64,000 nucleotides of DNA from Bdellovibrionales bacterium. Lineage in GTDB: Bacteria > Bdellovibrionota > Bdellovibrionia > Bdellovibrionales > JAKFYE01. The translations under genes and the position numbers were made by a program. The first letter of the stretch is position 1. Each line of letters starts with the position of its first letter. The DNA is taken from positions 75,834-139,833 of the forward strand of contig CBDBKL010000006.1 of assembly GCA_965206675.1 (NCBI GenBank), given 5' to 3'. This document shows, one piece after another, positions 31,008-48,179 of the stretch. The notes beneath the pieces are model-generated. The model was not told the origin of the DNA, ran no database searches, and saw nothing but the letters and a program-made list of their open reading frames with translations.

Positions 31008-31265
31008 CTATTTTCTCCTCCTATTTTCTAATTTTTTCACAACTAATTTAATCTTCAGTCCAATGCCGTTAGCGATTCTTACTAATTGATTAAGAGAAAT
31101 TGCCTTTTCAGTACCTCGAAGTGTTTTGTTTACATTTCGTCGATCCATTCCGACAATCCTTCCAACGTCACCTTGAGATAACCCCTGCCTTTTCATCTCT
31201 TTTAAAATTGCATCCGTCAAATCCTCTTTAAGATCGGGGACTTGGGTATTACTTAAATCAACCAT
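31008..31265 (-). CDS. XRE-family helix-turn-helix protein
   Basis: 85 aa. HTH LSQGDVGRIVGMDRRNVNKTLRG. Stop codon is 2 nt before the recombinase start, so likely co-transcribed. Confidence 0.8.
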   Translation of the reverse strand: MVDLSNTQVPDLKEDLTDAILKEMKRQGLSQGDVGRIVGMDRRNVNKTLRGTEKAISLNQLVRIANGIGLKIKLVVKKLENRRRK

Positions 31266-31682: not shown

Positions 31683-34145
31683 TCAGGCGACCAATTTTTT
31701 TAAGTCTTCAAGAATATATTTTTCTGGATTTAAAGATGTTGTTTCTTGATCTCTAAACATTCTCACTATTTCATTCAGTTTAACCCTATTCATAAACCCA
31801 AGGTCACAAAGTTTTACAAAATCATCTTTTGAAATCCCTGTCATAACCTCAAAAAATTCTGGCGATTTTGTTTGAATAACGTGATCTATATTGTATTCTC
31901 TCTCATAAGTCATATAAATAAAATCTGACATACAAATGGCAAGTCTTTTTATTTGAGTTGCATACCATTTTTTACGAGTTTGGCGTTCTTTATCCCTGTC
32001 TTTCTCTGAAAAATCATCAATTATTTTTTCTTTTTCCTCGATTGGAAGATTTGGATCAAGTATCGCCTCATCTAAAATAGAAGCATCTGCCCCTATTTGA
32101 GCAAGTTCTTCTACATTGATATTTCCCACATCTTGAGTTCTATATCCCTTGACTTTTTTCAGTATCTCTAGAAGATCAGGGTTATTTTCAAGAAGCCTTA
32201 AGCAACTATAATTTACCAAAGTATTTGACGTAATCTTTCTGGCAAGAGCGATTTTTGAACCTTCATGATTGAGGGCTTCAAAAATATCTTTTGATGTTGT
32301 TGGAGTGCTAACCAAGCTACCTTCATAAAATCTTTTAATATCTAAGGTGTCACATAGTCCTGTGGTGATAATCTCTAAGTTATCCTTGCTAGAATCCAAT
32401 TTTCCTTCTGAGCTTTCTTTTTGAGCAATTTGATCTGCAATATTCAGTGCACAATCATAGGTAACTTTTAAAGAGCGAGTAATGGCAAAATCAAAAACCC
32501 ACGCCTTTCTTTTTAAAATCTTTTTTGTTTTCTTGTCAACCCAAGAAGACTGAACACGAAAGATTGCTTGAAAATAAGATTCTGCTGACTGAACATCTGT
32601 CAGTATAAGAATGCTATCCCACTCTTTTATTGTTACTCCAGTTAAAAACCTCCCACAAGTAAAAGTAATAGTTCCAAGCTTGGAAGAGTCCTTGTTGATT
32701 TTCTCGATAGCTTCTTGAACCTTGCCCTTGTCCCTTGCGATTATATTCTCATCATTATCATTGCTCTTATTATCACTTCCTGAAGCGTTAATGAGAGTAA
32801 ATTTTGAAAAATAAGGATGCACTTCAAGTTTTTTAATCAGCGCAGTTATTGAATCAACTCGATTTACCCACCACACACTATGCCTTTTAGCAGGGCACCC
32901 TAAATTTTCACCAAGCTTGCCATATACGCTTATTGACCTTGCGCCATGCCCTGACTTATGAAGGCCTTCAATGAAGTGATCTACGGCATCTTCATGTACA
33001 AAATTTCCATTTTGTGTTTCAAGCAATGTGTTAAGAGAAAAATCTATATCATCGGTTTTAAATTTATCTTTTTGCTCCTTAATATCATCTTCAGTAATTT
33101 CTATAGTAGAGATATTTATATCAGGAAGTTGCCTGTACACACCTTCTTTTTCTTCGTTGGGATCTAGCTCTGCTTCTCTTTTTTTTCTTTTTTGCTCATC
33201 AAGGTAGCTGTAGGTATAAACTTGTTGAGGGCAAAAATCATCTTGCTCAATTAATCTGAAAGGGGTCCCCGATAGTCCTAATCTATTCTTATACTTAAGT
33301 TTATCTAATATATTTTTTGCCCTTTCAGTTCGACTTCCATAATGAACCTCATCGAAAATTATTAAGTCCCAAGATATGTTTGGAATTTTATGAAGCCTTT
33401 CCTTGGTATTACCGTTTTTGTCTATCCATAAATCTTGAAGGGAAACACACATAACGATTGGCCCATTGATCTGGGGAAAATTTCCATTATTGGTTAAAGT
33501 TGGATCTAACGGTCTATCACTTTTCTTTTTGGCTCTGACTCCTGTCCAACTATCAAACGCAATGTGATTATTTACTGTATCAATCCATTCACCGATAACA
33601 TCTGGCTTATATGTGACTACTAATGTATATTGACAGCTTAGGGCCTTAGCCAAGTGGATGCTAGTAAAACATTTTCCAAATCTCATTTTCGCATTGATGA
33701 GAAATCTGTTTGAATGAGTCGCTGAGCCAATAACTTCTTTAGGGTATTCTTTCAGAAACCACTTCTTCGCTTTTTCGACAGCCATCTGCTGCTCCTCTCT
33801 AGGAGAAAAATTATCAGATCTATTGCTGCCATATTTGATTTTATTGTATGCTTTTCTAACCTCACTAAATGGGTCATTTTTGTTACCTGTTTTAAACCAC
33901 TCTTTACCCGGCCCATCTTTAATCCATTTGCAACCATTTAAAATCATTTGGTTGTGTATATCTTTATCCGTTTTTCCTTCAGGAAGTTCACCTATTAGCA
34001 AAAACTTAGGTCGCTCTGGATTACTTGTTCCGAACTGCTCTTCAACACGCTCCTTGGATCGACCAATTTTGGAATGACCAACCTTGACCATACCTTGTTG
34101 CAGATACGTTTCCGTGGAGTAGGCATATAGCTCTTTCTTTGCCAT
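31683..34145 (-). CDS. GIY-YIG-like (T5orf172-type) domain fused to an SF2 (Res/SNF2-like) helicase
   Basis: 820 aa. N-terminus LYAYSTETYLQQGMVKVGHSKIGRSKERVEEQ...KEWF resembles the T5orf172/GIY-YIG-superfamily pattern. Helicase motifs: Q-like SPREEQQ, motif I MRFGKCFT, motif II IIFDEVHYG, motif III LGLSGTPF, motif VI-like QAIFRVQS. The start codon abuts the stop of the methyltransferase gene. Confidence 0.75.
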   Translation of the reverse strand: MAKKELYAYSTETYLQQGMVKVGHSKIGRSKERVEEQFGTSNPERPKFLLIGELPEGKTDKDIHNQMILNGCKWIKDGPGKEWFKTGNKNDPFSEVRKAYNKIKYGSNRSDNFSPREEQQMAVEKAKKWFLKEYPKEVIGSATHSNRFLINAKMRFGKCFTSIHLAKALSCQYTLVVTYKPDVIGEWIDTVNNHIAFDSWTGVRAKKKSDRPLDPTLTNNGNFPQINGPIVMCVSLQDLWIDKNGNTKERLHKIPNISWDLIIFDEVHYGSRTERAKNILDKLKYKNRLGLSGTPFRLIEQDDFCPQQVYTYSYLDEQKRKKREAELDPNEEKEGVYRQLPDINISTIEITEDDIKEQKDKFKTDDIDFSLNTLLETQNGNFVHEDAVDHFIEGLHKSGHGARSISVYGKLGENLGCPAKRHSVWWVNRVDSITALIKKLEVHPYFSKFTLINASGSDNKSNDNDENIIARDKGKVQEAIEKINKDSSKLGTITFTCGRFLTGVTIKEWDSILILTDVQSAESYFQAIFRVQSSWVDKKTKKILKRKAWVFDFAITRSLKVTYDCALNIADQIAQKESSEGKLDSSKDNLEIITTGLCDTLDIKRFYEGSLVSTPTTSKDIFEALNHEGSKIALARKITSNTLVNYSCLRLLENNPDLLEILKKVKGYRTQDVGNINVEELAQIGADASILDEAILDPNLPIEEKEKIIDDFSEKDRDKERQTRKKWYATQIKRLAICMSDFIYMTYEREYNIDHVIQTKSPEFFEVMTGISKDDFVKLCDLGFMNRVKLNEIVRMFRDQETTSLNPEKYILEDLKKLVA

Positions 34146-35594
34146 CTAAGACCATTCTCCAATTTTTTTATCCAGATGAAGCATTTCTTCTCTTGTTAAA
34201 TCAAAATATCTCGCAAGGCTTTTGTCATCAATTTCGGATAGATCTTCCATGAGAGGTACCCATGACCACCTATCTTTTGGAATATCTTGGGTTAGCTTTC
34301 TTAACCCTAATAAGTATCGGCAAAAATTTGTCTGAAGATATCTGATTAAACTTAAAGCTTCATTTTTATTTTCAAACGAACCTATTACATTATATGTTTC
34401 GGTAGAAATAGCCCCTTTTTCAATTAAGAAAATCTGATGTTTTGGAAGTGTACACCTTCTTGCGCCCGTTGCATACGCTCTGGGAATAGCCACTTTCCAC
34501 TCATCAATACTTTCTGAATGTCTAATTACATTACTTCTCTTGATCCATTTTATTTTTCTGCCTTTTGTGTAACACTTTACCGAATCACTTTTATCTTTTT
34601 CATATTCACTACTTGTAGAAAAGTAGTTAGTTGGAAGTCCAAAAGGTTTTCTTGACCAAGCAATATCTGATACAAAACACCCTTGGTGCTTGTTTAAAAC
34701 CTTAGTCACAATAGAACTAGCCTTGGGGTCATCTGGTATAATATCGAACCTAGATAAATCGACTTCGATTTCTTCACCTGAGTCGATAAACTTAGTCATT
34801 CCCAAATAATCCTTGTCAATATTCAAAAAACAAACCCCACCTTGTACATGAACAGTTGGGAACACATCCTCAGAGCGTCCAAAATACGACAAGTTTTTCA
34901 CATGTTGTGATTCCATTATTCTGCGCCTGAATTTCGCCAAGCCCTTACCAGAAGAAAACCAACGAGCTGGAATGACAAGCACAAATTCATTTATTGATTT
35001 GTTTTCAAAGAGATGTTCAACGAAGATGTTATAAATTGGCTTAGCACTGGCTTTTGCACCTCCATCAGCTTCTTGATAGGGCGGGTTCCCAACAACTATT
35101 ATTCTTTTATTTCCTGATTTATCTTTTATATATTCAACCATATTTTCAAACTCCTTTTTAAAAATGTTTTCATCTAATTTTCCATCTATCTCTGAAAGGT
35201 AATTTCCGTTTTTGATAATATGGTTATATTTTTCATCATGAGATTTTGTATTTCCAAGAAAAGTTCTCAAACTAAGCCTGTGGTGCCTTTCATCAGGGGC
35301 AAGGGCAAAATATCTGTTTGATTCAAAAATTTCCTTATGAATATCCTTTACATCCATTAGTTTCGATTGTTTCTTAAGCACTGAAACACAACTCATATAT
35401 GAACAGGCAAACAATAGTTCCCCTGCTTTACAGAAGGGGTCAAAAAAAACTACATTTTTATCTAAAAAAACATCAGAAGACAACAAAGACACCATCTCAA
35501 TTGCTTTATCCATTCTAAGTATGGGTTGATCCCGACCAATTGTATCCCCGAGTACGTCAACAACATGGGCACTTGGTTTCAGTAGGGCACTCAT
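34146..35594 (-). CDS. N6-adenine DNA methyltransferase (Eco57I-like/gamma-type) with C-terminal specificity region
   Basis: 482 aa. Motif I FFDPFCKAGELL. Catalytic motif IV VVGNPPYQEADGG, followed by AKPIYNIFVE. Confidence 0.85.
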   Translation of the reverse strand: MSALLKPSAHVVDVLGDTIGRDQPILRMDKAIEMVSLLSSDVFLDKNVVFFDPFCKAGELLFACSYMSCVSVLKKQSKLMDVKDIHKEIFESNRYFALAPDERHHRLSLRTFLGNTKSHDEKYNHIIKNGNYLSEIDGKLDENIFKKEFENMVEYIKDKSGNKRIIVVGNPPYQEADGGAKASAKPIYNIFVEHLFENKSINEFVLVIPARWFSSGKGLAKFRRRIMESQHVKNLSYFGRSEDVFPTVHVQGGVCFLNIDKDYLGMTKFIDSGEEIEVDLSRFDIIPDDPKASSIVTKVLNKHQGCFVSDIAWSRKPFGLPTNYFSTSSEYEKDKSDSVKCYTKGRKIKWIKRSNVIRHSESIDEWKVAIPRAYATGARRCTLPKHQIFLIEKGAISTETYNVIGSFENKNEALSLIRYLQTNFCRYLLGLRKLTQDIPKDRWSWVPLMEDLSEIDDKSLARYFDLTREEMLHLDKKIGEWS

Positions 35595-35596
35595 TT

Positions 35597-36373
35597 TTAC
35601 ACACCTTCTTCCAAGGGCTGATATTCAGGTGCAAAATCTTTACTTTTGAATAAAAATTTAGCAAAAGAAAATTCATTGCTAATCAATTTTTTCTTACCAA
35701 TTAAACTCGTTATAAAAGCAGAGGCTTTTTCAAAGATGATTGGAATAGAGTTTTCTGCCTCACACTTTTCAAAGAAATTTGCCCAAGTTAATCTGAACTC
35801 CATTTTTTGATGGCCTCTTTTGTTAAACCATTTTTTTCCTGGCTTTGTTTTCGAGGCTTTTTCTTTGGCCACAACCTCAGAGCTTAGTGATGAGAGGGTT
35901 TCATTTTCATGGATTTGCCACTTAATCGCAGACAAAATATGTGCAAAGAAATCTTCGTAGTCAGATATTAAATCCAATGAATTTTCATAACCAATTTTAG
36001 ATTTTATAAAACTCAAGGTATAAACAAGAACTCTAGTTCGGCAATTATTTACATTCTTTGAGTCAATATCAATTGCCCACAAAGTATTTAAAGAGTTAGC
36101 TACTGCATAGAAGGCTGCATTTTTAGAGTATTGTGGCAATGCTTTTCTATATAAGGAATCTAATCTCCGACGATAAATTGCAAGAACAATATTTCCATGG
36201 CCACAACATGGCTCAAAGAATATATTATTTTCATTTGACCAGAAACCGCGCCTATTTTTACTTAATAAGTCAAGCATATCTTCAACATATTTCTCAGGAG
36301 TAAAGACTTCTCCCAAATCCCTTATGCGATCCCTGCTTCTGTGAGGCAAAGCGCCTATTTCTATAATGTTCAT
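35597..36373 (-). CDS. Methyltransferase-like protein lacking the catalytic (D/N/S)PP(Y/F) motif
   Basis: 258 aa. Motif X GEVFTPEKYVEDMLDLL, motif I FFEPCCGHGNIVLAIY and AIDID are present. I found no NPPY-type tetrapeptide anywhere in the ORF. First gene of the tightly packed three-gene operon. Confidence 0.65.
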   Translation of the reverse strand: MNIIEIGALPHRSRDRIRDLGEVFTPEKYVEDMLDLLSKNRRGFWSNENNIFFEPCCGHGNIVLAIYRRRLDSLYRKALPQYSKNAAFYAVANSLNTLWAIDIDSKNVNNCRTRVLVYTLSFIKSKIGYENSLDLISDYEDFFAHILSAIKWQIHENETLSSLSSEVVAKEKASKTKPGKKWFNKRGHQKMEFRLTWANFFEKCEAENSIPIIFEKASAFITSLIGKKKLISNEFSFAKFLFKSKDFAPEYQPLEEGV

Positions 36374-37024: not shown

Positions 37025-37095
37025 CGGAAAAATGACCTGGTCGGCTTAATCCTTACCAACTAAAATGTTGGTTGCAGCGCAAAAAAGGAGGCCAT

Positions 37096-37374
37096 ATGCC
37101 CAGAAAACGCTTCTCCACAGAGGAGATCATCAAGCACATCAGAACCGCCGAAATTGAGCAGGCAAGAGGTGTTTCTCAAGACATGATTGCCAAGAGGATT
37201 GGGGTCAGTTCTGTAACCCTATCCCGGTGGAAAAAAGAGTTTGGTGGCCTAAGAATTGACCAGGCCAAAAGGCTCAAACAGTTGGAAAAAGAAAATGCTC
37301 AACTCAAACGACTGCTCGCCGATTCTGAGCTCGATAAGTTTATTCTCAAGGAAACCCTTGGGGGAAACCTCTAG
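37096..37374 (+). CDS. IS3-family transposase OrfA (HTH)
   Basis: MPRKRFSTEEIIKHIR...VSSVTLSRWKKEF plus a leucine-zipper-like tail. The ATG at 37096 is preceded by AAGGAGG; the track start at 37072 is probably too early. Confidence 0.88.
   Translation: MPRKRFSTEEIIKHIRTAEIEQARGVSQDMIAKRIGVSSVTLSRWKKEFGGLRIDQAKRLKQLEKENAQLKRLLADSELDKFILKETLGGNL
37362..37368 (+). promoter_or_regulatory. Programmed -1 ribosomal frameshift heptamer G GGA AAC
   Basis: In the orfA frame the codons are ctt ggG GGA AAC ctc tag, so X XXY YYZ is in the correct phase. The -1 frame is open from 37338 and reads ..WGKPLGPARRKALASHMIGQFNISERRAC into OrfB. A TCTAG-GCCCGG-CTAGA palindrome follows immediately. Confidence 0.65.
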
Positions 37375-37406
37375 GCCCGGCTAGAAGAAAGGCTCTGGCC
37401 AGTCAT

Positions 37407-38219
37407 ATGATTGGCCAGTTCAATATATCTGAACGTCGGGCTTGTAAACTCGCCAATATATCCAGAGCTTCTTTCCGCTATACCCCCATAAAAAACCCCT
37501 TTGATGACAAACTCAGAGCAAGAATTGTTGAGTTGGCATCTCTCTTCGGCCGTTATGGTTATAAAAAGATTACCCACATGCTTAACTCCGAGGGGATGCT
37601 CGTGGGTAAAGACAAGGTATTAAGAATATGGAGAGAAGAGGGGCTAAAGGTTCCTCAGAAACAACCCAATCGTGGACGTCTTTGGTTGGCCAATGGTTCG
37701 TGCATTCGACTCCGTCCAGAGTACCCCAACCATGTCTGGTCATATGACTTCGTTAACCACCAAACTTATGACGGAAAAAAGTTAAAAATCTTGAATATCA
37801 TTGATGAATACACGAGAGAGTGCTTAGCATCTCACGTTGGGAGAAGAATTACCTCAATGAACGTGGTTTATATTCTTGCGGACCTTTTTTTAACGAAAGG
37901 GGTGCCAAAGCATATTAGATCAGACAACGGGCCAGAGTTTATTGCGAAGAATCTCCTTTCTTGGTTTAAACTTCTTGATATTGCTCCTCTGTTTATCCAT
38001 CCCGGCAGTCCCTGGGAAAATGGTTACTGCGAATCCTTTAATGGAAAAATGAGGTATGAGCTTTTAGATGGAGAAGTTTTTTATAGTTTGACAGAGGCAA
38101 AGGTCATCATAGCAAGTTGGGTTCGGCAATATAATACGATCCGTCCCCATTCGTCACTCGGGGGAAGCCCCCCGGCTCCGGAGGCAGATGCTCCTCCGCT
38201 AGAGCTATTTGCAGTTTAA
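37407..38219 (+). CDS. IS3-family transposase OrfB (DDE/rve integrase core), probably made as an OrfAB fusion
   Basis: 270 aa with NHVWSYDF, HIRSDNGPEF, PWENGYCESFNG and IRPHSSLGG. Confidence 0.9.
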   Translation: MIGQFNISERRACKLANISRASFRYTPIKNPFDDKLRARIVELASLFGRYGYKKITHMLNSEGMLVGKDKVLRIWREEGLKVPQKQPNRGRLWLANGSCIRLRPEYPNHVWSYDFVNHQTYDGKKLKILNIIDEYTRECLASHVGRRITSMNVVYILADLFLTKGVPKHIRSDNGPEFIAKNLLSWFKLLDIAPLFIHPGSPWENGYCESFNGKMRYELLDGEVFYSLTEAKVIIASWVRQYNTIRPHSSLGGSPPAPEADAPPLELFAV

Positions 38220-38364: not shown

Positions 38365-38670
38365 TTAAAAGATATTGCGCGCTGAAACTAACAATGATAC
38401 TGGTACAACTATTCCCAGCCGGCCAGCGTTTTCTACCAAGTGAAAGATTTTGTCTTCCTGGATACTGTATGACCCTGAATAAAATAGAACAGAATCTAAA
38501 ATATCAGACGGATTTTCACTTATGGGTTTTCGCTGAATACCAACGCTCATAAATCCATCTGGAGAATAAATAAGAAGCCCTGACATAGCCTCTCCCCATG
38601 GCCCTTTAGTGCCATCTGGCCTTTCAATCTCAAAGCTCTCAAGGCCCCATGAACCGTGAAGGGACATCAT
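38365..38670 (-). CDS. Lipocalin-like domain protein whose 3' end runs into the IS3 right end (possibly truncated)
   Basis: 101 aa. LHGSWGLESFEIERPDGTKGPWGEAMSGLLIYSPDGFMSVGIQ...FYSGSYSIQEDKIFHLVENA matches the bacterial lipocalin-like domain pattern as I recall it. The last nine residues (LLVSARNIF) are encoded by IS sequence. Confidence 0.6.
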   Translation of the reverse strand: MMSLHGSWGLESFEIERPDGTKGPWGEAMSGLLIYSPDGFMSVGIQRKPISENPSDILDSVLFYSGSYSIQEDKIFHLVENAGRLGIVVPVSLLVSARNIF

Positions 38671-38944
38671 CTTTTACCTCACTTTTAGTCTCAATAAATA
38701 CCAGTGAATTGAGACTTGCCGTGCATTAAATAGCTGAAATAGATATAAAAAGTCAAATATATTTTGAGACTTGATCTAAGCTGCTGAAAATACCTCTATT
38801 TTTCATATCTTTTTTACAGACTCAATTTTTGTCAGCTACTTCCAACACCGCGGCCCTTCTCAGGGGTTATCAAGAGAAGCCATACTTTCTATACCTTGCG
38901 AGATAGCAAGGAAACTCTCTCTTAAAAATGAGGATAAGGTTAAG

Positions 38945-39035
38945 CGGAAAGCCACCGGAAAGCCTGCGGAAAGTCTTAAAAAAGCCATAAAAATCGCCGG
39001 AAAGCTTGAAAAAGCCTACTCAAAATAGCGGAAAG
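38945..39035. repeat. Iteron-like array of five CGGAAAG motifs
   Basis: CGGAAAG starts at 38945, 38956, 38967, 38998 and 39029, giving spacings of 11, 11, 31 and 31 nt. The last three sit in about 31-nt imperfect tandem units (CGGAAAG-n-AAAAAGCC). A further direct repeat GCTAGTTACG occurs at 39070 and 39108. Confidence 0.75.
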
Positions 39036-39126
39036 TATGTAAAAAAGGAGCTGTTTCTTAACAATATCGGCTAGTTACGCTGAGAGCTAAAAGTTTTCGT
39101 AATTTCAGCTAGTTACGGAGGTCAAA

Positions 39127-40374
39127 TTGAATAGTGGTACTATAAATCCATTTAAGCCAGGAAATCCTGTTCCCCCTGGAGTCTTTGCAGGGAGGGGGAA
39201 GGAGCTAGGGCAAATCAGTAAATGCATTATGCAAACCTCTCATTTCTCACCTCAAAATATTTTAATTATGGGAGAAAGAGGAATTGGTAAAACCTCTATG
39301 GCATATGTCGTAAAGGCCATGGCCGAAAAGAATCTTCCTCTTATACATGAAGCGCAAAATAATTTGATCACGGCCTATCTCAGTGTGAAAAAGAATACGC
39401 CCTCCCCGGTGGTCATTTCTCAAATAGTGGAAGAGCTAGAAACTCAACTTGAGCCGTTCCGCACACTGCTTGGTGCGGCCTCTGACTCCATTAAGAATTT
39501 TGTTAAAAATTTTCAATCAATTTCTGTTCAGGGTCTTGAGATCAAGACAAGCGAGAAAAAGACGATACCAATCGAGGAAATTTATATCGAAGCCAAAAAG
39601 ACTTTAAGAAAATGTGCTAACGCTTGTAAAAATACGGAAAATATAGAGGATTCTAGGTCCATTTGTATTATTGTCGATGAACTTGATAGGATGGCGGACT
39701 TTGAAAATTTCTCTTCATTTTGGAAAGGGCTACAAGAAACTCTTGGAGCAGATGATTGTAATAGCTTAATGCTCGTTTTTGTTGGGATGCCAGAAATAAA
39801 GGATAAGTTAGCTGCAGACCATGAATCAATTATTCGAACCTTTACCCCAATATACCTTGATAGGATGGAGAGACAAGACGCAGAAGAAGTTATAAAAAAA
39901 GCTTTAGATGGAAGTGGAAAGACAATATCGAATGAAGCAGTTGAAAAGATATTAAACTATTCAGAATATTTCCCTCATTTAATCCAAGAATTAGGTTACT
40001 CAGCTTTTGAAGTATCTGAACGTAATGAGATTACTGGAAAAGACGTTGATTTAGGGATTCATGGTAATGAGTCTTACCCTGGATCAATAGCAAGGCTTGG
40101 GGAACTCTTTTTTTCCCGAATGTATGATGAGATCAAAAAGAGCAAAAATTTCAAAGAAATTCTCAAAATAATTGCAACGCTATCTGGCATTAAGCAAAAG
40201 TGGGTGTCCAGGCAAGCAGTACTAAAAGAGTTCTCTGGAAAGAGTACAAACTTAGATTCGTCGATAAGAGTGCTAAAAGAAAAGAAACTAATTATTACAA
40301 ACCCAGAGATGCAAGGACAATATAGGATTTCTTCTAAAATGTTTCAAGCATACATAGAAAAGATTTTTATATGA
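39127..40374 (+). CDS. P-loop NTPase (Orc1/Cdc6-like or STAND-like AAA ATPase) with C-terminal winged-helix-like region
   Basis: 415 aa. TTG start preceded by GGAGG. Lead-in FAGRGKELGQI, Walker A ILIMGERGIGKTSMAY, Walker B ICIIVDELDR. Confidence 0.8.
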   Translation: MNSGTINPFKPGNPVPPGVFAGRGKELGQISKCIMQTSHFSPQNILIMGERGIGKTSMAYVVKAMAEKNLPLIHEAQNNLITAYLSVKKNTPSPVVISQIVEELETQLEPFRTLLGAASDSIKNFVKNFQSISVQGLEIKTSEKKTIPIEEIYIEAKKTLRKCANACKNTENIEDSRSICIIVDELDRMADFENFSSFWKGLQETLGADDCNSLMLVFVGMPEIKDKLAADHESIIRTFTPIYLDRMERQDAEEVIKKALDGSGKTISNEAVEKILNYSEYFPHLIQELGYSAFEVSERNEITGKDVDLGIHGNESYPGSIARLGELFFSRMYDEIKKSKNFKEILKIIATLSGIKQKWVSRQAVLKEFSGKSTNLDSSIRVLKEKKLIITNPEMQGQYRISSKMFQAYIEKIFI

Positions 40375-40378
40375 AAAT

Positions 40379-42847
40379 ATGATTGGTGAAGAAAAGCACA
40401 AAGTCTCTGAAATTGAGGAAATAGAAAAAAGACTTGAGCAATTAAGTAGGGAAAGATCAGAACTCCTCAAGAAATTATCTAGTCTAAGATTAAAAAATAA
40501 TACGAAAAATATTCCGTTATTAGGGAGAATATTAGATATTTCTTCACCGAATACACCAGAAGAGAAAATAAACCTTTTTAAAAAACTATTTTGTTGTCGT
40601 GAAGATATTTTTCCAAGATTTTGGGAGAATGAAAAAACTGGAAAGAGAGGATATTCGCCTGTTTGTTCTAATGAATGGGTAAGACCTATTTGTAGAAAGC
40701 CAGAGGTTAAATGTAGTGATTGCCAGCACCAAAGCTTTCTACCCTTAGATGAAATATCCATCAAATCGCATTTGCAAGGATTTCATATTGCTGGAACTTA
40801 TGCCATAAGAGAGAATAATACTTGTATTTTTCTTGCGGCAGATTTTGATAGGGCCTCTTGGAAAGAAGATTCCTTAGCATATAAAAAAGCAGCCAGAGAG
40901 CTTGGAGTTGAAGTTTGTATTGAACGCTCAAAGTCAGGTAATGGGGCACATGCTTGGATATTTTTTCAGGAACCAATTTGGGCCAGAAAGGCAAGACAGG
41001 TTGGAACGTTGATTCTTGTTCGGGCGACTTCAATCAGCCAGAAAATTAAACTTAACAGTCACGATCGTTTTTTTCCTAGCCAAGATACAGTTCCTAAAGG
41101 TGGATTTGGAAATCTTATAGCACTACCTTTGCAGAGAGTAGCAAGAGGACAGGGCAATAGTGTTTTTGTTGATGATGAATTTAGGCCTGTTGAAGATCAA
41201 TGGAAATTCCTAAGCGGTATTCGTCGATTATCTCAGGACGACATAGATCTTTTGCTAAACAAAAATTTATCTCAAAATATGATTTTAAATTTTGATATTG
41301 AAGACTTTGATCTCAGGATAACTGAAAAAGCATTGGATTCGATTTCAAAGAAATTAAAACTAGAAGAATTTTATGAAACGATAAATTTAAGAATTTCAGA
41401 TCAAATTTACATAAATACCGAAAACCTCCCTGATATTTTAGTTGGGGCATTTAGAAGAAAGGCCACATTTGCTAATCCAGAGTTCTTCAAGAAACAAAAA
41501 ATGAGATTTTCAACTTGGGATACACCGAGATTTATTTGCTGCGCAGAAAACTTAGGCAATGAAATGTCAGTTCCAAGAGGAAGTCTTGATGAATGTCTAG
41601 CGATTGCAAGTGAAGTTGGGGCAAACGTTAATATTTTTGATGAAAGACCTAATCATAAAAAGATCAAAGTAAAATTCACTGGAGAATTAAGACAAGATCA
41701 AAAGAAGGCCATCAGAAAAATTATCAATTACGATACAGGGGTTCTCGTAGCTCCTCCAGGAGTTGGGAAAACGGTTATGGGATGCCACCTTATAGCTAAA
41801 AGGAAAGTTCCAACTTTGGTATTAGTTCATCGTAGGCCTCTTATGGATCAATGGGTAGAGAGGCTTAAAGAATTTTTAGATATTGCCCCCAAGGAAATAG
41901 GTTCATTTGGAGGCTCAAAGAAAAGGCCAAAGGGAAAGATAGATGTTGCTATGTTGCAAACACTTTCTAAACTAGAAGATTGTGAAGAAATGTTGTCTGA
42001 ATATGGACAGATAATTGTCGATGAATGCCATCATATTCCGGCCCAATCCTTTGAGCAAGTTATGAAAAAGATTCCGGCCAAATACTTTGTTGGGTTGACA
42101 GCAACTCCGTATCGAAAAGATGGCCATCAGGCCATTATTCATATGCAGTTAGGCCCTACCCGACACGAAATGGAAGATTTCGGAGCCAATGCATTAGAAA
42201 AGAAAGTATTTATTAAAGAAACCAATCTTCAATTTCCAGAAAATTTAAAAAGACTCGAAATTCATGAAATCTGGGACATCCTAATTGGCCATGATGGCAG
42301 AACTTCTATGATCGTTCAAGATATTAAAAGCGAGTTGGAAGCAAATCGTTTCCCATTAATCATATCAGAGAGAAAAGAACACTTGGCCAATATTTCAACT
42401 AAAATAAAGACCTCTTCCATCAAGGCCAAAGAATTTATACTGATTGGAGATATGGGCAAGAAAAAGAGAAAGGAAATTTTGGATCAAATCCATAACTGTG
42501 TTCAAAATAAAGAACAATTTTACATTTTATCTACAGGCTCTTTTATTGGGGAGGGTTTTGATCTTCCTATTTTAGATTCCTTAATTTTAACAATGCCAGT
42601 GTCATTTAAAGGTCGATTAGTTCAATATGCGGGGCGAATACATAGGATATTTGAGAAAAAAGAGGAAGTGAGAATATTTGATTACTTAGACCCTCACAGC
42701 AATCTAACCATTAAGATGCTAAAGAAAAGGATTCCTGTTTATAAAAAGATGGGTTATAAAATTATCTCAGACCATGGGAAAAAAGTGGATCAGATTTTAT
42801 ATCAAACAAGATTGTTCTCTGAGTTTGAAGGCAATATGACCCATTAG
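40379..42847 (+). CDS. Archaeo-eukaryotic primase (PrimPol)-like domain fused to an SF2 helicase
   Basis: 822 aa. N-terminal coiled coil, then a Cys cluster (CSNEWVRPICRKPEVKCSDC). AEP motifs FLAADFD (DxD), SKSGNGAHAWIFF (sGxGxH) and GFGNLIALPL. Helicase motifs LVAPPGVGKT, IIVDECHHI, GLTATPYR and VQYAGRIHR. Confidence 0.8.
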   Translation: MIGEEKHKVSEIEEIEKRLEQLSRERSELLKKLSSLRLKNNTKNIPLLGRILDISSPNTPEEKINLFKKLFCCREDIFPRFWENEKTGKRGYSPVCSNEWVRPICRKPEVKCSDCQHQSFLPLDEISIKSHLQGFHIAGTYAIRENNTCIFLAADFDRASWKEDSLAYKKAARELGVEVCIERSKSGNGAHAWIFFQEPIWARKARQVGTLILVRATSISQKIKLNSHDRFFPSQDTVPKGGFGNLIALPLQRVARGQGNSVFVDDEFRPVEDQWKFLSGIRRLSQDDIDLLLNKNLSQNMILNFDIEDFDLRITEKALDSISKKLKLEEFYETINLRISDQIYINTENLPDILVGAFRRKATFANPEFFKKQKMRFSTWDTPRFICCAENLGNEMSVPRGSLDECLAIASEVGANVNIFDERPNHKKIKVKFTGELRQDQKKAIRKIINYDTGVLVAPPGVGKTVMGCHLIAKRKVPTLVLVHRRPLMDQWVERLKEFLDIAPKEIGSFGGSKKRPKGKIDVAMLQTLSKLEDCEEMLSEYGQIIVDECHHIPAQSFEQVMKKIPAKYFVGLTATPYRKDGHQAIIHMQLGPTRHEMEDFGANALEKKVFIKETNLQFPENLKRLEIHEIWDILIGHDGRTSMIVQDIKSELEANRFPLIISERKEHLANISTKIKTSSIKAKEFILIGDMGKKKRKEILDQIHNCVQNKEQFYILSTGSFIGEGFDLPILDSLILTMPVSFKGRLVQYAGRIHRIFEKKEEVRIFDYLDPHSNLTIKMLKKRIPVYKKMGYKIISDHGKKVDQILYQTRLFSEFEGNMTH

Positions 42848-42908
42848 CTGCGTAGAACCTTGAAGGGTGAGGTGAAGAAGTTCATTTTTAACAAAAAAAA
42901 GCGGGAGA

Positions 42909-44479
42909 GAGAGTTTAAAAAATTTTGTGTATGAGCAGAAAAACTCTTAATCGGAATTAAAAGTTTTTGGGCGAGAACTATTTCTCGCCCTTACAATGAC
43001 TCAATATCAGGCCACGCCAGCGGCGTCAATAAGAAAAATTACAAAGGGGGCAAGGCCCCCATATCGGGCCCTCTAGGCGGCCCTCAATACTCTCAAAAAT
43101 TGAAATTCGGGCCCGTCCCTTGGAAACTACCGTTTCCCACGGGCCCGAAAAAACGGCCCTTAAAGGCCCAGGGGAACCCTTCCATCGAAGTGGATTGAGA
43201 GCTGTCCGATCATCTCTGCCCAGCCCTGCTTCTTCATCGTCCACTTCTTGCTTGCCTCCATGACTGCAAGGTAGAGCAATTTTGAGAGGGCATCGTCACT
43301 GGGAAAATGCCCTCTATTTTTTGTCACCTTCCGAAGTTGGCGGTGGAATCCTTCGATGATATTTGTCGTATAGATCATTTTCCGTATGGGGGGCGAGTAT
43401 TTGAAAAACGTAGCAAGATTCTCCCAATTGCTCCTCCAGGACTTAATGACCACTGGATATTTACGGCCCCATTTCTCGTCTAGTTCTTTGAGCTTTTCGA
43501 GAGCAATTTCCTCTGATGTTGCTTGGTACACCGTCTTCAGATCCCCTGCAAATTCTTTTTGATTATTTGACCCGACATACTTCAATGAGTTGCGGATTTG
43601 ATGGACAATACAGAGCTGTATCTCTGTCTTTGGAAATATGCTTGAGATGGCCTCCGGTAACCCCTTAAGTCCGTCCACACATGCGATGAGAATATCCTTA
43701 ACGCCCCTGTTGGAAATGTCAGTGAAAACTTGCATCCAAAACTTAGAACTCTCGGAGTCTCCAACATAGAACCCCAATACTTCTCGTTTACCCTCAAGGT
43801 TGATCGCAAGGGCCACATAGACAGTTCGAGCGACAACTTTCCCTTCGACTTTTGCCTTATACCTGATGCCATCAAAAAAAACTATAGGGTAAACTTCGTC
43901 AAGTTGTCTTGCCTGCCACTCCTTGCTTAAAGACAGGATTTTTTCAGTGGTTTGGGAAATAAAAGTTGGTGAAACTTCGGCCCCCAGATACAAGTCAGAG
44001 AGGTGTTCAGCAATATCGGTTGTTGTCATTCCCTTGGCGTACATGCTGATAATTTTCTTTTCAAGATCGCTAGTTTTTGTCTTGTATTTGGGCAGGGCCT
44101 TGGGAGTAAACTCGCCTTTACGATCCCGAGGAACTTCAATGCTGACTTCACCAGATTCAGTTTTCAGTTTTTTTGAGTAGTGGCCATTGCGAGAATTATC
44201 AGTTTTTTTTGCCCTGGCATCGTTGTGTTCATATCCAAGGTGATCGGTCATCTCTTCCTTGAGCATCGTTTCGATGGCATCCTTGAAGAGAAAACTGAGG
44301 GGGCCATCTTTGGCAAGAATTTCTTCGACGCTGCCGCACTGCCTTGCTCTGCGCCAATACTCTGCCATTTGTTCTTTTGAGGGGGGTTCTTTGCGTAAAT
44401 CGACCATAGGGTACCTCCTTAATCAGGATAAATCCGATTAAAGAGATCGTCTATCATCCACAATTTATTTTAAACTCCC
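42909..44479 (-). mobile_element. IS256-family insertion sequence with 8-bp target-site duplication
   Basis: Terminal inverted repeats GAGAGTTTAAAAAATTTTGTGTATGA (42909..) versus reverse complement GGGAGTTTAAAATAAATTGTGGATGA (..44479), 21 of 26 matching. Direct repeat GCGGGAGA at 42901..42908 and 44480..44487. Confidence 0.88.
43160..44407 (-). CDS. IS256-family (mutator-type) transposase
   Basis: 415 aa with LGYEHNDARAKKTDNSRNGHYSKKLKTESGEVSIEVPRDRKGEF, YVALAINLEGKREVLG, CVDGLKGL and QLCIVHQIRN. Confidence 0.93.
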   Translation of the reverse strand: MVDLRKEPPSKEQMAEYWRRARQCGSVEEILAKDGPLSFLFKDAIETMLKEEMTDHLGYEHNDARAKKTDNSRNGHYSKKLKTESGEVSIEVPRDRKGEFTPKALPKYKTKTSDLEKKIISMYAKGMTTTDIAEHLSDLYLGAEVSPTFISQTTEKILSLSKEWQARQLDEVYPIVFFDGIRYKAKVEGKVVARTVYVALAINLEGKREVLGFYVGDSESSKFWMQVFTDISNRGVKDILIACVDGLKGLPEAISSIFPKTEIQLCIVHQIRNSLKYVGSNNQKEFAGDLKTVYQATSEEIALEKLKELDEKWGRKYPVVIKSWRSNWENLATFFKYSPPIRKMIYTTNIIEGFHRQLRKVTKNRGHFPSDDALSKLLYLAVMEASKKWTMKKQGWAEMIGQLSIHFDGRVPLGL

Positions 44480-44657: not shown

Positions 44658-45545
44658 TCACTTTCTCCATGCCGGTGGCTTCCATGGGAAATTATCTACC
44701 CCATCATATGAATAATTTTTTTCTTCAATGTAGTATGAATCACTTTCAATTTCTTCATCGCTGTCAACCTCGACTGTTCCATCATCCCATAAAATAGTTA
44801 ACACTTGGCCATGAGAATTTAAAGGGAGGCTCCATTCAAACAACTCGGAATCTTGTTTTACTTTATAGCCTACAATCCATGAGTTAGCTGGAACGATGTC
44901 AAAATCGCTTGGAATACTTTGTGACTTTAGGGCTTTGTACGCAAACGTTCCTTCAGCAACTATTCTTGAGTCAGACATTTGGAGACTATATCTAAAACTA
45001 TCTGAAGATCTATAGAACTGAATCTGCCTATTTTTTGAGACAATAAGGCAGCATGACGCCGTTGTCATACTGATAAACTTAAATGCTGAAGCCATCAAAG
45101 ATACATCAAAGTAATTTGATACTTGTCGAATTGAATCCCAACATGGCTCTTGGGGGTTAAAGTAATTCTGGACCATACGCTTGGGCATAAGAAGCTCGCT
45201 CGCAAATTGATCCGCTCTTAACTCCTTATCCCTTGATATATCAAAGGTTTCAATCATTCTATTTGAACAAACAAAAGTTTGCTCTTCGCCAAAGGTTACA
45301 TCCAGATTTAGATGCCCAAGTTCATGAGCTACAGAGAATCTTCTTCTTTTTGGATATGTTTGTTTTGAGTTAATTCCTATAGTAGCAAGTTGCCCATTAA
45401 ATAGAAGAACCCCCTCAATACCGTCAAAGTCTTTTTCAAATATTTCTATCTCTTGAGAGGCACAAATACCAAAAGGGTCTATCGGGAAATTGTTAATGCC
45501 TAGGTCATCTAAGAATTGATTTGCACATCGTTCTGCTTTATTCAT
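44658..45545 (-). CDS. ImmA/IrrE-family zinc metallopeptidase (CapP-like CBASS regulator candidate)
   Basis: 295 aa with HExxH in SVAHELGHLNLD. Overlaps the upstream XRE gene by 8 nt. The pair is divergent from the CBASS operon. Confidence 0.8.
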   Translation of the reverse strand: MNKAERCANQFLDDLGINNFPIDPFGICASQEIEIFEKDFDGIEGVLLFNGQLATIGINSKQTYPKRRRFSVAHELGHLNLDVTFGEEQTFVCSNRMIETFDISRDKELRADQFASELLMPKRMVQNYFNPQEPCWDSIRQVSNYFDVSLMASAFKFISMTTASCCLIVSKNRQIQFYRSSDSFRYSLQMSDSRIVAEGTFAYKALKSQSIPSDFDIVPANSWIVGYKVKQDSELFEWSLPLNSHGQVLTILWDDGTVEVDSDEEIESDSYYIEEKNYSYDGVDNFPWKPPAWRK

Positions 45546-45882
45546 TGGAGTATGACTTCTTTTTTAAAAACTCCATGTGACTTTTTAAGTAGTCACGATC
45601 TTTTTCACTAAGTTCCTTAAAACCCCTGTAAAACTCTTTCCATTCCTGTTGTACTCTTGGTTCATTTTCCTGATTACTCCTACCAGTTAAATAATCAATG
45701 GATACTTCGAGCGTAATGGCGAGCTTTCTTAAAATTGGTAGATTGGGCATACGGCTACCTTTTTCAAACTGATTTATCGCCGCAGGGGTTATACTGGCCC
45801 TTCTTGCTAATTCTGCCTGAGACCAGTGATGTTTCTCCCTAGCTTCTCTCAATCTAAAAGAAAAGATTCCCAAATCTTCCAT
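45538..45882 (-). CDS. XRE-family HTH repressor (CapH-like CBASS regulator candidate)
   Basis: 114 aa. HTH WSQAELARRASITPAAINQFEKGSRMPNL. Divergently transcribed from the patatin gene. Confidence 0.8.
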   Translation of the reverse strand: MEDLGIFSFRLREAREKHHWSQAELARRASITPAAINQFEKGSRMPNLPILRKLAITLEVSIDYLTGRSNQENEPRVQQEWKEFYRGFKELSEKDRDYLKSHMEFLKKKSYSNE

Positions 45883-46077
45883 TTTACCTCCAAAAGCTCT
45901 TTATATACCAAATTTAGGGTGTTTCTCTCCAGAGAAAGATAACAAAACGATAATTTTTATTATTAAATAGTTGACAGTGGCCCAGTTGTTTATTACCATA
46001 TAGTTAAGAATATAAGGCTAAATAGTTAATTGGCAATCTTTTTTCAACTAGAGCTGTAAACGGGTTAAAAATAGGGA

Positions 46078-47178
46078 ATGAGCATGGAAAATAATAGAAA
46101 ATCAGGAGTTTCACCGTACAGGGTTTTATCCTTAGACGGCGGCGGAATGAGAGGACTCTATGCAGCATCCCTTCTGAAAGAACTATCTGACCGGTTTAAT
46201 CAATCTGCCCCTAAAGATATTGGAAAAGGATTTGACCTAATTGTGGGTACAAGTACTGGAGGAATTATTGCGGCAGGCTTAGCTGCCGGAGTTGACATTA
46301 ATAATCTAATCAAAATTTATGCGGAGGAGGGAAGGCATATTTTTACCAATCCTATTCCCAAGGGGAAAATCCGTATCTTAACATGGATATTCCGACATTT
46401 TTGCAAATCCGCAAATAGTAATGAAAAACTAAAGATCGAACTCCAAAAAATTTTAAAAAAAGAAACAGTTGGAGAACTTTTTAATAGAAGAAAGATTGGA
46501 CTTTGCCTTACAGCAATTAATCTCTCTAATGGTCGGCCTCGGGTATTCAAAACGCCGCACGACCCAGAGAGATGTGCGGATGACAACCGAACTTTAGCTG
46601 ATGTATGCTTGGCTACTTCTGCGGCACCTATAGTTTTTCCAATCGCCGTAATTGAAGAGCCAAATAATTCAGATTTAAAAGAAGGGTTTATTGACGGTGG
46701 TCTTTGGGCCAACAACCCAGTTTTAATCGGTCTTATTGAATCGTTACGTTTGTCGAAAAGAGAACAAGCTATAGAAGTAATTTCAGTAGGTACATGCCCT
46801 CCCCCAGGAGGACCACAATTTGACGATAAAAATACGAATAAAGGAGTTAAGTACTGGAGAGCGGGTGTTCGTTCTTTGGATATGTCAATGAATGCTCAAT
46901 CGGAAGGGTTTAATTTCATGTGCGGTTTTTTAGCCAATAGCTTAAAAAATCTAGATAAACAAGTTACAATCTGTCGTTTAAATGTCAATAGTCTTTCAAA
47001 AGAGCAGATTGACAAGATAGGCCTTGATGTTGCGACAAAGGAAGCGTGTGACATCTTAAGAAGAACAGGTATTACGGATGGTCAGCAAATCTATAGCAAA
47101 ATCCTGAAATATCCAAATAATGAAGAGTTTAAAATACTGAAAGATATTTTTACTAATTTACCACATCCATCTAAATGA
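46078..47178 (+). CDS. Patatin-like phospholipase, CBASS effector type (CapV/CapE-like)
   Basis: 366 aa with all three intact motifs: LSLDGGGMRGLY (oxyanion), VGTSTGGIIA (GxSxG) and FIDGGLWANNP (DGG). Confidence 0.9.
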   Translation: MSMENNRKSGVSPYRVLSLDGGGMRGLYAASLLKELSDRFNQSAPKDIGKGFDLIVGTSTGGIIAAGLAAGVDINNLIKIYAEEGRHIFTNPIPKGKIRILTWIFRHFCKSANSNEKLKIELQKILKKETVGELFNRRKIGLCLTAINLSNGRPRVFKTPHDPERCADDNRTLADVCLATSAAPIVFPIAVIEEPNNSDLKEGFIDGGLWANNPVLIGLIESLRLSKREQAIEVISVGTCPPPGGPQFDDKNTNKGVKYWRAGVRSLDMSMNAQSEGFNFMCGFLANSLKNLDKQVTICRLNVNSLSKEQIDKIGLDVATKEACDILRRTGITDGQQIYSKILKYPNNEEFKILKDIFTNLPHPSK

Positions 47179-48179
47179 AGGAGCACGTCATGACAAATCT
47201 ACAAAAGCAATTCGAAAAGTTTCATCGTGAAATCAAAGTTGAAACTGAGGAGCTGAGAGAAAAAAGAGATATTATTATCAATAAAATTAAAGACTCTTTA
47301 AACAGAAATGGATGTCCGGTTCCTGAACTCTTTAACCAAGGGAGCTATATTTACGGGGTTGGGATAAAACCTATCTCAAATGAGCAGGAATATGACATAG
47401 ATGTTGGATTAATTTTTAACATTAGATCAGACGAATACTCAGCAAAAGAAGTTCGGATGTGGGTTTACGATGCTATTGGGGAGCATACCCAAAACGTAGA
47501 AGAAAAAGGACCTTGCATTAGAGTTCGATATCAAGCAGGATATCATGTTGATTTGATTTGCTATTCTCTAAGCACAGATTACGATGGGCATAGAAAATTC
47601 AAGTTTGCTCATAAGAGTGATGGTTGGAAAGAAGCTGATCCCGAAAAGCTCAAATCCTATATTAAGGAAGCTCGAAGACCATTTGAAAATAGTAGAGACT
47701 CAAGTGGTGTTGACCAACTTCAGCGTGTAGTGCGATATTTAAAGAGATGGAATGATAAGGCTTTGCCGGATGAATCTGAAGATAAACCCGTTGGGCTAGC
47801 ACTACTTCTTCTTTGCATAAAGCACTTGATTACACCTATATTTGACTCTGAGGGTAAAAGTAATGATTTAGAAGCACTAAGAACAATAATCGGTCAAATA
47901 AAATCTCTGTCAAGAATCTCTGTTAAAAAGCCAACTCCAGAATATGAAGATGTCTTCGAAAAAATTGGCAATGATGGTATGTTAAGTCTTATTGGGAGAT
48001 TTAAACAATTGGACGAATCTTTGTTTAATGCCCTCAATGAAAGTGATTTAGAAAAGGCATGTAAGATAATAAGATGTGAGTTTGGTAATGACTTCCCTCT
48101 TGAAAAAGACGAAGAAAAATCAGCAACGGTAGCTTCCATCATCGCTTCCGTTGAAGCTACGAAGCCTTATGCAAATTGA
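47175..48179 (+). CDS. cGAS/DncV-like nucleotidyltransferase (CD-NTase)
   Basis: 334 aa. NQGSYIYGVG (GS..G), EYDIDVGLIF (DxD) and GYHVDLICY (third acidic residue). The ATG at 47190, preceded by AAGGAG, is the more likely start; the 47175 ATG overlaps the patatin stop. Confidence 0.75.
   Translation: MKEHVMTNLQKQFEKFHREIKVETEELREKRDIIINKIKDSLNRNGCPVPELFNQGSYIYGVGIKPISNEQEYDIDVGLIFNIRSDEYSAKEVRMWVYDAIGEHTQNVEEKGPCIRVRYQAGYHVDLICYSLSTDYDGHRKFKFAHKSDGWKEADPEKLKSYIKEARRPFENSRDSSGVDQLQRVVRYLKRWNDKALPDESEDKPVGLALLLLCIKHLITPIFDSEGKSNDLEALRTIIGQIKSLSRISVKKPTPEYEDVFEKIGNDGMLSLIGRFKQLDESLFNALNESDLEKACKIIRCEFGNDFPLEKDEEKSATVASIIASVEATKPYAN

Follow-up and report, generated by a model that had tools for sequence, protein, structure and literature searches.

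A distant homolog of the Escherichia coli IEE protein encoded beside an Orc1/Cdc6-fold ATPase gene in a defense-rich island of a Bdellovibrionales bacterium

INTRODUCTION

[quoted passage not shown] Its archaeo-eukaryotic primase (AEP) domain polymerizes DNA in a Mn2+-dependent and error-prone manner (catalytic carboxylates D142, D144, and D216) and has a tyrosine steric gate (Y128) that favors deoxynucleoside triphosphates (dNTPs) over RNA primers; its superfamily 2 (SF2) domain (ATP-binding K451; arginine finger R735) is a DNA-dependent ATPase without unwinding activity, and the full-length protein carries out microhomology-mediated joining of 3′ overhangs (PMC9943667). Here, we analyzed a 64,000-nt stretch of DNA (the window) from a Bdellovibrionales bacterium (GCA_965206675.1; contig CBDBKL010000006.1, positions 75,834 to 139,833 of the forward strand), in which two adjacent open reading frames (ORFs), ORF1 and ORF2, lie in an IS-rich island. 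A preliminary description of the same DNA had presented them as an orphan two-gene module, a candidate anti-phage system, for which no experimental characterization was known. Our comparative analysis places ORF2 in the IEE family and indicates that its adjacency to ORF1, an ATPase gene of a different family, is recent and lineage specific.

The IEE authors themselves drew an analogy with DNA polymerase theta (PMC9943667), in which an SF2 helicase-like ATPase is fused to an error-prone polymerase that performs microhomology-mediated end joining (MMEJ). The analogy is functional and can be extended to ORF2, from which DNA polymerase theta differs in polymerase fold (A family versus AEP), in its opposite domain order, and in being eukaryotic. 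The IS3 and IS256 families, one member of each of which flanks the two genes studied here, form circular copy-out-paste-in intermediates, the class on which IEE has been proposed to act (10.1101/2023.06.07.543989).

RESULTS

ORF2 is a full-length homolog of IEE

The two genes lie on the same strand with an intergenic gap of 4 nt, as follows.

ORF1, positions 39127 to 40374, + strand: 415 aa, TTG start, predicted AAA+ ATPase with an Orc1/Cdc6 fold
ORF2, positions 40379 to 42847, + strand: 822 aa, ATG start, predicted IEE-family AEP polymerase with an XPB-like SF2 ATPase

BLASTP aligned ORF2 with IEE of E. coli O157:H7 (WP_000233452.1; ECs1305; 786 aa) at 42% identity over 749 aa (E = 0), in one collinear alignment spanning residues 59 to 803 of ORF2 and 46 to 785 of IEE. 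This protein was reached through a tblastn search of plasmids, which led to E. coli homologs and from these to WP_000233452.1. Both proteins matched PF22548 (AEP-TOTE; 6.1e-92 over residues 62 to 290 of ORF2 and 1.7e-98 for IEE) and share the ResIII (2e-28 in ORF2) and Helicase_C architecture. The residues D142, D144, D216, Y128, K451, and R735 of IEE aligned with D155, D157, D229, Y141, K464, and R753 of ORF2, respectively, all of which were invariant across an alignment of 35 family sequences. Because the homology extends over the full length, the architecture is the same, and the mapped catalytic residues are all conserved, ORF2 is assigned to the IEE family, already named and partly characterized, as a new and distant member. 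The features that ORF2 shares with IEE, namely an N-terminal helix, a Cys4 cluster, a Z1568-like/AEP-TOTE domain, a linker, and an XPB-like SF2 core, were located as listed below.

Long N-terminal helix, coiled-coil-like, positions 40382 to 40501, + strand: residues 2 to 41 in the AlphaFold2 (AF2) secondary structure; consensus kept in the family
AEP (Z1568-like/AEP-TOTE) polymerase domain, positions 40562 to 41248, + strand: residues 62 to 290; catalytic D155, D157, H191, and D229; steric gate Y141; all five invariant in the family alignment
Cys4 cluster, positions 40664 to 40723, + strand: C96, C105, C112, and C115; invariant in the family alignment
SF2 ATPase core, XPB/Rad25-like, positions 41684 to 42748, + strand: motif I, K464; motif II, DECHH at 548 to 552; motif III, TATP at 574 to 577; motif VI, Q749, R753, and R756

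The family comprised 7993 matches at E ≤ 1e-10, which were full length, about 50% identical, distributed over many phyla, and of a single architecture throughout. Like ORF2, iee is carried in an IS-rich integrative island. The two differ in that ORF2 belongs to a different phylum-level lineage, has a GC content of about 36% and a longer N-terminal helix, and abuts an upstream ATPase gene, whereas iee of E. coli is a stand-alone gene following a yfjJ-like gene. IS excision and MMEJ are known for the E. coli protein only and are predicted for ORF2.

Much of the preliminary description was borne out by these searches. Its coordinates and its two forward-strand ORFs 4 nt apart were confirmed, and every motif quoted was present in the translations, namely FLAADFD, SKSGNGAHAWIFF, GFGNLIALPL, APPGVGKT, DECHH, TATPYR, and QYAGRIHR in ORF2 and FAGRGKELGQI, GERGIGKTS (Walker A, G49 to S57), and IIVDELDR (Walker B, D184/E185) in ORF1. 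Pfam profile searches upheld its domain calls (AAA_16, AAA_22, AEP-TOTE, ResIII, and Helicase_C), the winged helix of ORF1 and the N-terminal coiled coil of ORF2 were seen in the predicted structures, the Cys cluster was family invariant, and the surrounding IS3 and IS256 elements, the anti-phage operon at 1.8 kb, and the link of the island to a tRNA gene were recovered by domain and tRNA searches. The designation of the locus as an orphan had to be abandoned, since the full-length homolog of ORF2 has been studied genetically and biochemically, and Pfam and PGAP already name the family. The same description had held that its proposal would fall if the pair proved to be an already named and characterized system; what was found is that the ORF2 family is named and that IEE, one of its members, is characterized.

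Structure prediction, which the preliminary description had recommended, yielded a model of ORF2 with a predicted local distance difference test (pLDDT) score of 86. Its C-terminal half had XPB of TFIIH as the top Foldseek match and XPBII and Rad25 as sequence matches in the PDB, so that XPB/Rad25 (TFIIH) and archaeal XPB-Bax1 are its best matches in both sequence and fold. In keeping with the absence of unwinding by IEE, XPB does not unwind DNA as a classical helicase does but translocates on double-stranded DNA; the SF2 core of ORF2 is fused to a polymerase, whereas XPB has a nuclease or TFIIH subunits as partners. Among solved AEP folds, the nearest was that of the CRISPR-associated Prim-Pol (CAPP; 7nqd, 7nqf, and 7p9j; sequence E = 2e-15; Foldseek TM-score, 0.79 with the PrimPol structure 7p9j), and the cas-associated PrimPol profile of PADLOC matched ORF2 at 6e-83. 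ORF2 nevertheless differs from CAPP, scoring 95.6 bits against a cutoff of 200 on the NCBIfam model PrimPol_Msp, and CAPP lacks the SF2 fusion. No cas matches were found among the neighbors of the pair.

IEE-type genes occur as single-gene cargo of islands

IEE-type matches were present in 1730 of 5426 complete E. coli genomes, where PGAP names the product [quoted passage not shown] Comparison loci carrying relatives of ORF1 or ORF2 are labeled L0xx or L1xx below. In EDL933-type strains (L141/L145), iee sits after the yfjJ-like gene in int-alpA-yfjI-yfjJ islands, downstream of replication-type genes (DUF3987/YfjI and a Gp2-like protein). The corresponding slot in CP4-57 of strain K-12 (L144) holds the Hachiman-type AbpAB pair (YfjL/YfjK), and that of OHT76-1 (L146) holds a 336-nt remnant of iee together with genes for a 1652-aa AAA protein and a 478-aa protein. 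Such turnover of single-gene cargo is typical of defense hotspots and would be consistent with an enzyme that acts against mobile DNA, as IS excision itself does. The possibility that the E. coli homolog of ORF2 is YfjK, the CP4-57 "cryptic helicase" with ionizing-radiation phenotypes, was rejected, as YfjK of K-12 is AbpB and lacks homology to ORF2 (E = 0.09); YfjL/AbpA is a Cap4-nuclease and HamA protein.

No conserved neighbor was detected around ORF2 relatives at 35 genome loci, and the recurrent neighbors were XRE-type helix-turn-helix (HTH) proteins (6 loci), toxin-antitoxin genes, and integrases. The closest independent relatives (68 to 70% identity) form a Gp49(HigB-like)-HTH-ORF2 operon with no ATPase gene upstream. 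In these, the Gp49 and HTH_37/XRE genes (L037:1746-2314, L038:9390-9994, and L140:1003-1616) end 1 to 10 nt ahead of the IEE-like gene, an arrangement suggestive of control of the latter by a toxin-antitoxin-like or regulatory pair. Relatives from Syntrophorhabdales had a gene for a 91-aa XRE HTH protein in the Gp49-HTH position. Full-length ORF2 (at least 80% coverage) was found in 0 of 50,697 phage genomes, its helicase half alone matching T5-D10-like helicases, and the 98 matches on plasmids were accessory genes of large plasmids with their own replication systems.

ORF1 belongs to a family of solo ATPases with an Orc1/Cdc6 fold

ORF1 is a member of an uncharacterized family of solo ATPases. 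It matched AAA_16 (1e-8), AAA_22, and, at the margin, nSTAND1 (27.2 versus a cutoff of 27.1). Its predicted model (pLDDT, 86; predicted template modeling score, 0.82) consists of an AAA+ core, a lid, and a C-terminal winged helix (approximately residues 340 to 415), and its top full-length Foldseek matches in the PDB were the archaeal Orc1/Cdc6 structures 2qby_A (6e-11), 1w5t, 1fnn, and 1w5s. Although this three-part fold is shared with Orc1/Cdc6 (2qby, 1fnn, and 1w5s), the identity is 12 to 14%, and ORF1 differs from these proteins as a bacterial or viral solo gene without MCM or replisome partners. It lies outside the Orc1/Cdc6 sequence family, because its score against TIGR02928 was 27 bits, confined to the N-terminal 90 residues, compared with a cutoff of 181.3. 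The TTG start is backed by the near-invariance of N7, P8, F9, P11, P14, F20, G22, and R23 across the family; judged on sequence, the database gene calls of 381 aa for ORF1-type proteins begin too late.

The family comprised 443 representative clusters at E ≤ 1e-10, nearly all of about 410 aa and matching end to end, corresponds to PHROG 6841, and has further members near integrases on viral contigs. Rare members (P0242 and P0247) carry an N-terminal leucine-rich repeat (LRR) domain or a C-terminal adenylate/guanylate cyclase fusion, and these fusions are a hint that ORF1-type ATPases can work as STAND-like signaling switches. STAND and AVAST-type NTPases have sensor repeats and an effector domain, whereas neither was found in ORF1, in which the ATPase, lid, and winged helix account for all 415 aa.

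Genes of the ORF1 family were flanked by tandem arrays with a period of 10 to 11 bp (or 20 to 22 bp), the repeat sequence of which differed by lineage. The examples are as follows.

Window array, positions 38945 to 39047, unstranded: CGGAAAG in 5 copies, spaced by 11, 11, 31, and 31 bp; same positions in L036
L044 array, positions 6573 to 6886: GGGCGGTAAGT, about 23 copies
L045 arrays, on both sides of the gene, positions 6648 to 6963 and 8303 to 8659: GTGGGGAAGT, 74-nt units in 4.3 and 4.6 copies
L042 array, positions 6890 to 6945: AGTCTCCGGTA, 5.1 copies
L136 array, positions 5821 to 5891: GGAACCTACCG, 6.5 copies
L147 array, upstream of the gene, within the first 236 nt: CTGAAAA, about 8 copies

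Within 900 nt of ORF1-family genes, 13 arrays were counted in 123 kb, versus 5 in 837 kb of background (Poisson P, ~1e-12), an enrichment of roughly 18- to 35-fold that is to be read with the caveat that near-gene regions are richer in intergenic DNA than the background. The array in the window, with its five copies, is a short version of those beside relatives. The repeats matched no known family and are iteron-, centromere-, or ORB-like in appearance, and no CRISPR-like array was found within positions 38600 to 43000. ORB elements adjoin archaeal orc1/cdc6 genes, to which the repeats beside ORF1 may be likened. Because the spacing corresponds to one helical turn, a protein could assemble on such an array along one face of the DNA. 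This suggests that the bound protein is most simply ORF1 itself, acting through its winged helix, and that the arrays are candidate sites of autoregulation, origins, or centromere-like sites. We infer, as the function of ORF1, binding to the ~11-bp-period repeats beside its own gene.

The adjacency of ORF1 and ORF2 is lineage specific

Pairing was assessed at 35 genome loci and 6 metagenome loci for ORF2 relatives and at about 100 loci for ORF1 relatives, a sample of each family. With tblastn and a family hidden Markov model (HMM), for which the positive controls gave 91 and 35 matches, an ORF1-like gene was found at 0 of the 35 genome loci of ORF2 relatives and an ORF2-like gene at 0 of the 94 ORF1-relative loci L042 to L135. 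There was likewise no ORF1-like gene among the listed gene calls at the 6 loci of the 68 to 70% ORF2 relatives and no ORF2-like gene among the listed genes of L136 to L139, and ORF2 was not found in L147 and L148 by tblastn. No neighbor was conserved around the ORF1-family genes of L042 to L135, and ORF1 relatives at 46 to 71% identity were solo genes beside HipBA or HEPN/MNT modules. The closest relatives were metagenome-assembled genomes (MAGs) labeled Bacteriovoracaceae, Bdellovibrionales, and Oligoflexia.

The pair was seen only in the source genome of the window and in L036, in which ORF2 is 97% identical. A 4.1-kb block (window positions 38755 to 42900) is 96% identical there and lies beside the same tRNA-Ala and recombinase end; on this comparison, the L036 copy is the same island site rather than an independent acquisition. 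The block begins with the following region.

Upstream conserved region of ORF1, positions 38755 to 39126, + strand: start of the block shared with L036; shared with L148 from 38822

In L148, 90.7% nucleotide identity extends over window positions 38822 to 40384, the homology stopping at 40384, that is, at the start of ORF2, and ORF1 is intact with no ORF2 after it. ORF1 thus persists without ORF2. In the 58%-identical ORF1 relative of L042 (a Bacteriovoracaceae MAG), the gene is followed after 456 nt by one for a 1330-aa protein (8692 to 12684) next to an integrase, which consists of a Zn-ribbon, DUF4011, an SF1 helicase (AAA_11/AAA_12), and MTES_1575. L042 is a second case of an ORF1-type ATPase beside a large helicase-type protein.

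The co-occurrence test proposed in the preliminary description thus gave no independent instance of the two-gene module (0 of 41 ORF2 loci and 0 of about 100 ORF1 loci, with L148 carrying ORF1 alone). These comparisons indicate that the adjacency of ORF1 and ORF2 is a recent, lineage-specific juxtaposition and not as an obligate two-component system. In the source genome and in one close relative, the two genes are probably cotranscribed. Promoter-like sites lie upstream of ORF1 near positions 38734 to 38791, and a ribosome-binding site (GGAGG, 39117 to 39121) precedes its TTG start by 5 nt.

The locus lies in a tRNA-linked, defense-rich island

The left end of the island and the genes flanking the pair are as follows.

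tRNA-Ala, positions 29174 to 29249, + strand: left end of the island carrying ORF1 and ORF2
Large serine recombinase, positions 29153 to 31003, − strand: Resolvase and Recombinase domains; abuts tRNA-Ala
IS3-family element, positions 37072 to 38219, + strand: orfA at 37072 to 37374 and orfB at 37407 to 38219; rve, rve_3, and HTH_21 domains
IS256-family element, positions 42911 to 44477, − strand: transposase at 43160 to 44407 (Transposase_mut, 4.5e-112); terminal inverted repeats at 42911 to 42934 and 44454 to 44477

Each of the two elements is present in one copy within the window. The IS3-family element ends some 0.5 kb before the conserved block starts and is missing at that position in L036; a crude search detected no terminal inverted repeats for it. 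The IS256-family element is inserted 64 nt past the stop codon of ORF2, and the homology with L036 ends at 42900. The tRNA-Ala and the 3′ end of the recombinase gene are 82% identical to L036, which keeps only the 3′ part of the recombinase gene. A search with a generic pattern, used in place of the true tRNA sequence, did not detect a second copy of the 3′ end of tRNA-Ala, which would indicate where the island ends on the other side. The recombinase ORF runs into the tRNA gene, its last ~30 codons being antisense tRNA sequence, and is adjoined by an HTH_37 gene (85 aa; 31008 to 31265). Between the IS3-family element and the ORF1 block lies a Lipocalin_5 fragment (101 aa; 38365 to 38670, − strand), the N terminus of which (SLHGSWGL) is common to a chimeric ORF of L148 (3 to 512, − strand) that ends in a "Recombinase" fragment of a serine recombinase. 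The recurrence of this N terminus in the chimeric ORF points to a rearrangement or deletion at the IS3-ORF1 junction.

Defense-related genes occur on both sides of the pair, including a cyclic oligonucleotide-based antiphage signaling system (CBASS) that starts 1.8 kb downstream of ORF2.

Eco57I/N6_Mtase protein with an HSDR_N domain, positions 26431 to 28134: left of tRNA-Ala; restriction-modification (R-M)-like
Split type IIG-like R-M set, positions 31683 to 36373: ResIII/SNF2-like protein of 820 aa, Eco57I-type methyltransferase, and small methyltransferase-like protein; within the island
CBASS operon, positions 44658 to 48903: CapH/CapP regulators, patatin effector, CD-NTase, and E2-like protein with a SEC-C motif
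MazF/PemK toxin gene, positions 49984 to 50325: just past CBASS

At its left edge, the window contains part of an rRNA operon on the minus strand (positions 1 to 2152), comprising the 5′ end of the 23S gene (1 to 323), tRNA-Ile (419 to 495), and a complete 16S gene (642 to 2152).

DISCUSSION

Collectively, our findings make it probable that the locus consists of an IEE-type enzyme acting on DNA ends or transposition intermediates, encoded beside an independent DNA-binding ATPase. As in IEE, ORF2 would tolerate primer/template slippage, find microhomologies of at least 4 bp, and join or extend 3′ single-stranded ends, while its XPB-like, DNA-dependent SF2 ATPase would hold the double-stranded part of the substrate rather than unwind it, a behavior shown for E. 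coli IEE and extrapolated here to ORF2. Together with an active transposase, this activity would act on copy-out-paste-in ISs (IS3, IS1, and IS30 being those shown for IEE), and the outcome for transposition intermediates would be excision of the IS, precise or imprecise, and deletion of adjacent DNA. ORF2 would in effect be an island-borne enzyme against other mobile DNA, carried as single-gene cargo of integrative islands and defense hotspots, and ORF1 would be a separate gene that normally stands alone. That the pair is flanked by ISs of the class proposed as IEE targets may be a coincidence.

Several considerations weigh against this explanation. An identity of 42% to IEE is insufficient to prove a shared cellular role, IS excision having been demonstrated for the E. 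coli protein only. The search for pairing covered a sample of loci and not the whole of either family. In the sequence, ORF2 has no obvious promoter or ribosome-binding site of its own, and this, together with the 4-nt spacing and the retention of the pair in two genomes, is compatible with a functional operon. L148 seems to keep traces of the first codons of ORF2, so that ORF2 may have been deleted there and the pair could, tentatively, be ancestral to the clade. The AEP domain is, reportedly, classified by Aravind and coworkers as an effector of TOTE conflict systems. In view of that classification and of its location in defense hotspots, the family could serve primarily against phages or plasmids and excise ISs only incidentally.

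The preliminary description had favored a sensor plus effector pair, and its general idea of genetic conflict holds, although comparative support for an anti-phage pair did not emerge. In such a lineage-specific two-component system, directed against phages or plasmids, ORF1 would serve as a winged-helix DNA sensor or switch that assembles on foreign or structured DNA and then recruits or licenses ORF2, which would make aberrant DNA or scramble the replication intermediates of the invader. We consider this unlikely. In its favor are the operon-like arrangement on one strand, the retention of the pair with 370 nt of upstream DNA as a block in a second genome, and the position in a true defense island between a type IIG-like R-M set and a CapH/CapP CBASS. 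The STAND-like architecture of the rare LRR and cyclase fusions, the different helicase-nuclease (DUF4011, SF1, and MTES_1575) behind the 58% ORF1 relative, and the computational prediction of the AEP domain as a conflict effector also speak for it. Set against these points, co-occurrence was limited to two near-identical genomes, each gene stands alone or beside a different partner in its nearest independent relatives, L148 has an intact ORF1 without ORF2, and ORF1 itself lacks the sensor repeats and effector domain expected of such a switch. The PADLOC check that had been recommended returned no system model, with no system-level match for ORF1 and a generic PrimPol profile only for ORF2. 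A more specific version would make the ORF1-type ATPases and their 11-bp-period arrays an undescribed DNA-array-binding module, captured here as the loader or regulator of an IEE-type polymerase-translocase and forming with it a real two-component system against replicating or transposing foreign DNA. The chances of this are slim; if true, the IEE family as a whole would naturally serve immunity and not IS housekeeping.

The other reading offered by the preliminary description, a replication-initiation module of the tRNA-Ala island, with ORF1 as the initiator on iteron-like origin repeats and ORF2 providing priming and unwinding, was poorly supported, and we judge it very improbable. Its appeal lies in the best folds of ORF1, which are those of archaeal Orc1/Cdc6 bound to origin DNA, in the periodic arrays beside ORF1-family genes, in the combination of an AEP and a helicase-like domain in ORF2, in the proximity of the island recombinase, and in the position of iee behind replication-type genes in E. 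coli. An initiator and a primase-helicase would, however, be expected to covary, yet the two families never co-occurred elsewhere; the full ORF2 architecture was absent from all 50,697 phage genomes, and the plasmid copies are accessory to large replicons, which are equipped with replication systems of their own. Moreover, E. coli IEE does not unwind DNA and has a steric gate favoring dNTPs, ORF1 falls far under the Orc1/Cdc6 cutoff, and the array in the window is short. Because of the repeat arrays, a replication role stays alive for ORF1 alone and not for the pair. Membership in a TOTE conflict system, at the level of the system, is the remaining explanation and an exceedingly improbable one. 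It is prompted by the PF22548 "AEP-TOTE" match and by the PGAP name of the homologs, and TOTE systems do share with ORF2 this domain family and a predicted conflict role; the name, however, describes a domain family and not an operon. System membership was rejected, as neither a TPR-OB/cold-shock domain (CSD) partner nor a TBP partner is present: no protein with TPR and OB/cold-shock domains and no TBP protein was found within ~10 kb of the pair or among 104 neighbors of 35 relatives. A literature search for AEP-TOTE, PF22548, or TOTE conflict found no paper.

On the IEE-type explanation, a candidate "new defense system" is refiled as a distant member of the known IEE family, and an apparent operon as the local juxtaposition of two independent genes. 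One family of ~8000 members thereby joins three literatures, namely those of the IEE IS-excision factor, of the "TOTE conflict system AEP," and of the cas-associated PrimPol profile. What remains novel are the arrays beside ORF1, the small chance of a working ATPase-IEE pair, and the biological role of the IEE/"TOTE-AEP" family. The repeat arrays beside ORF1-family ATPases represent a small, new, and testable lead. The occurrence of the family as swappable cargo in defense hotspots sharpens the question of whether IEE truly functions in IS excision or excises ISs as a by-product of acting against mobile DNA.

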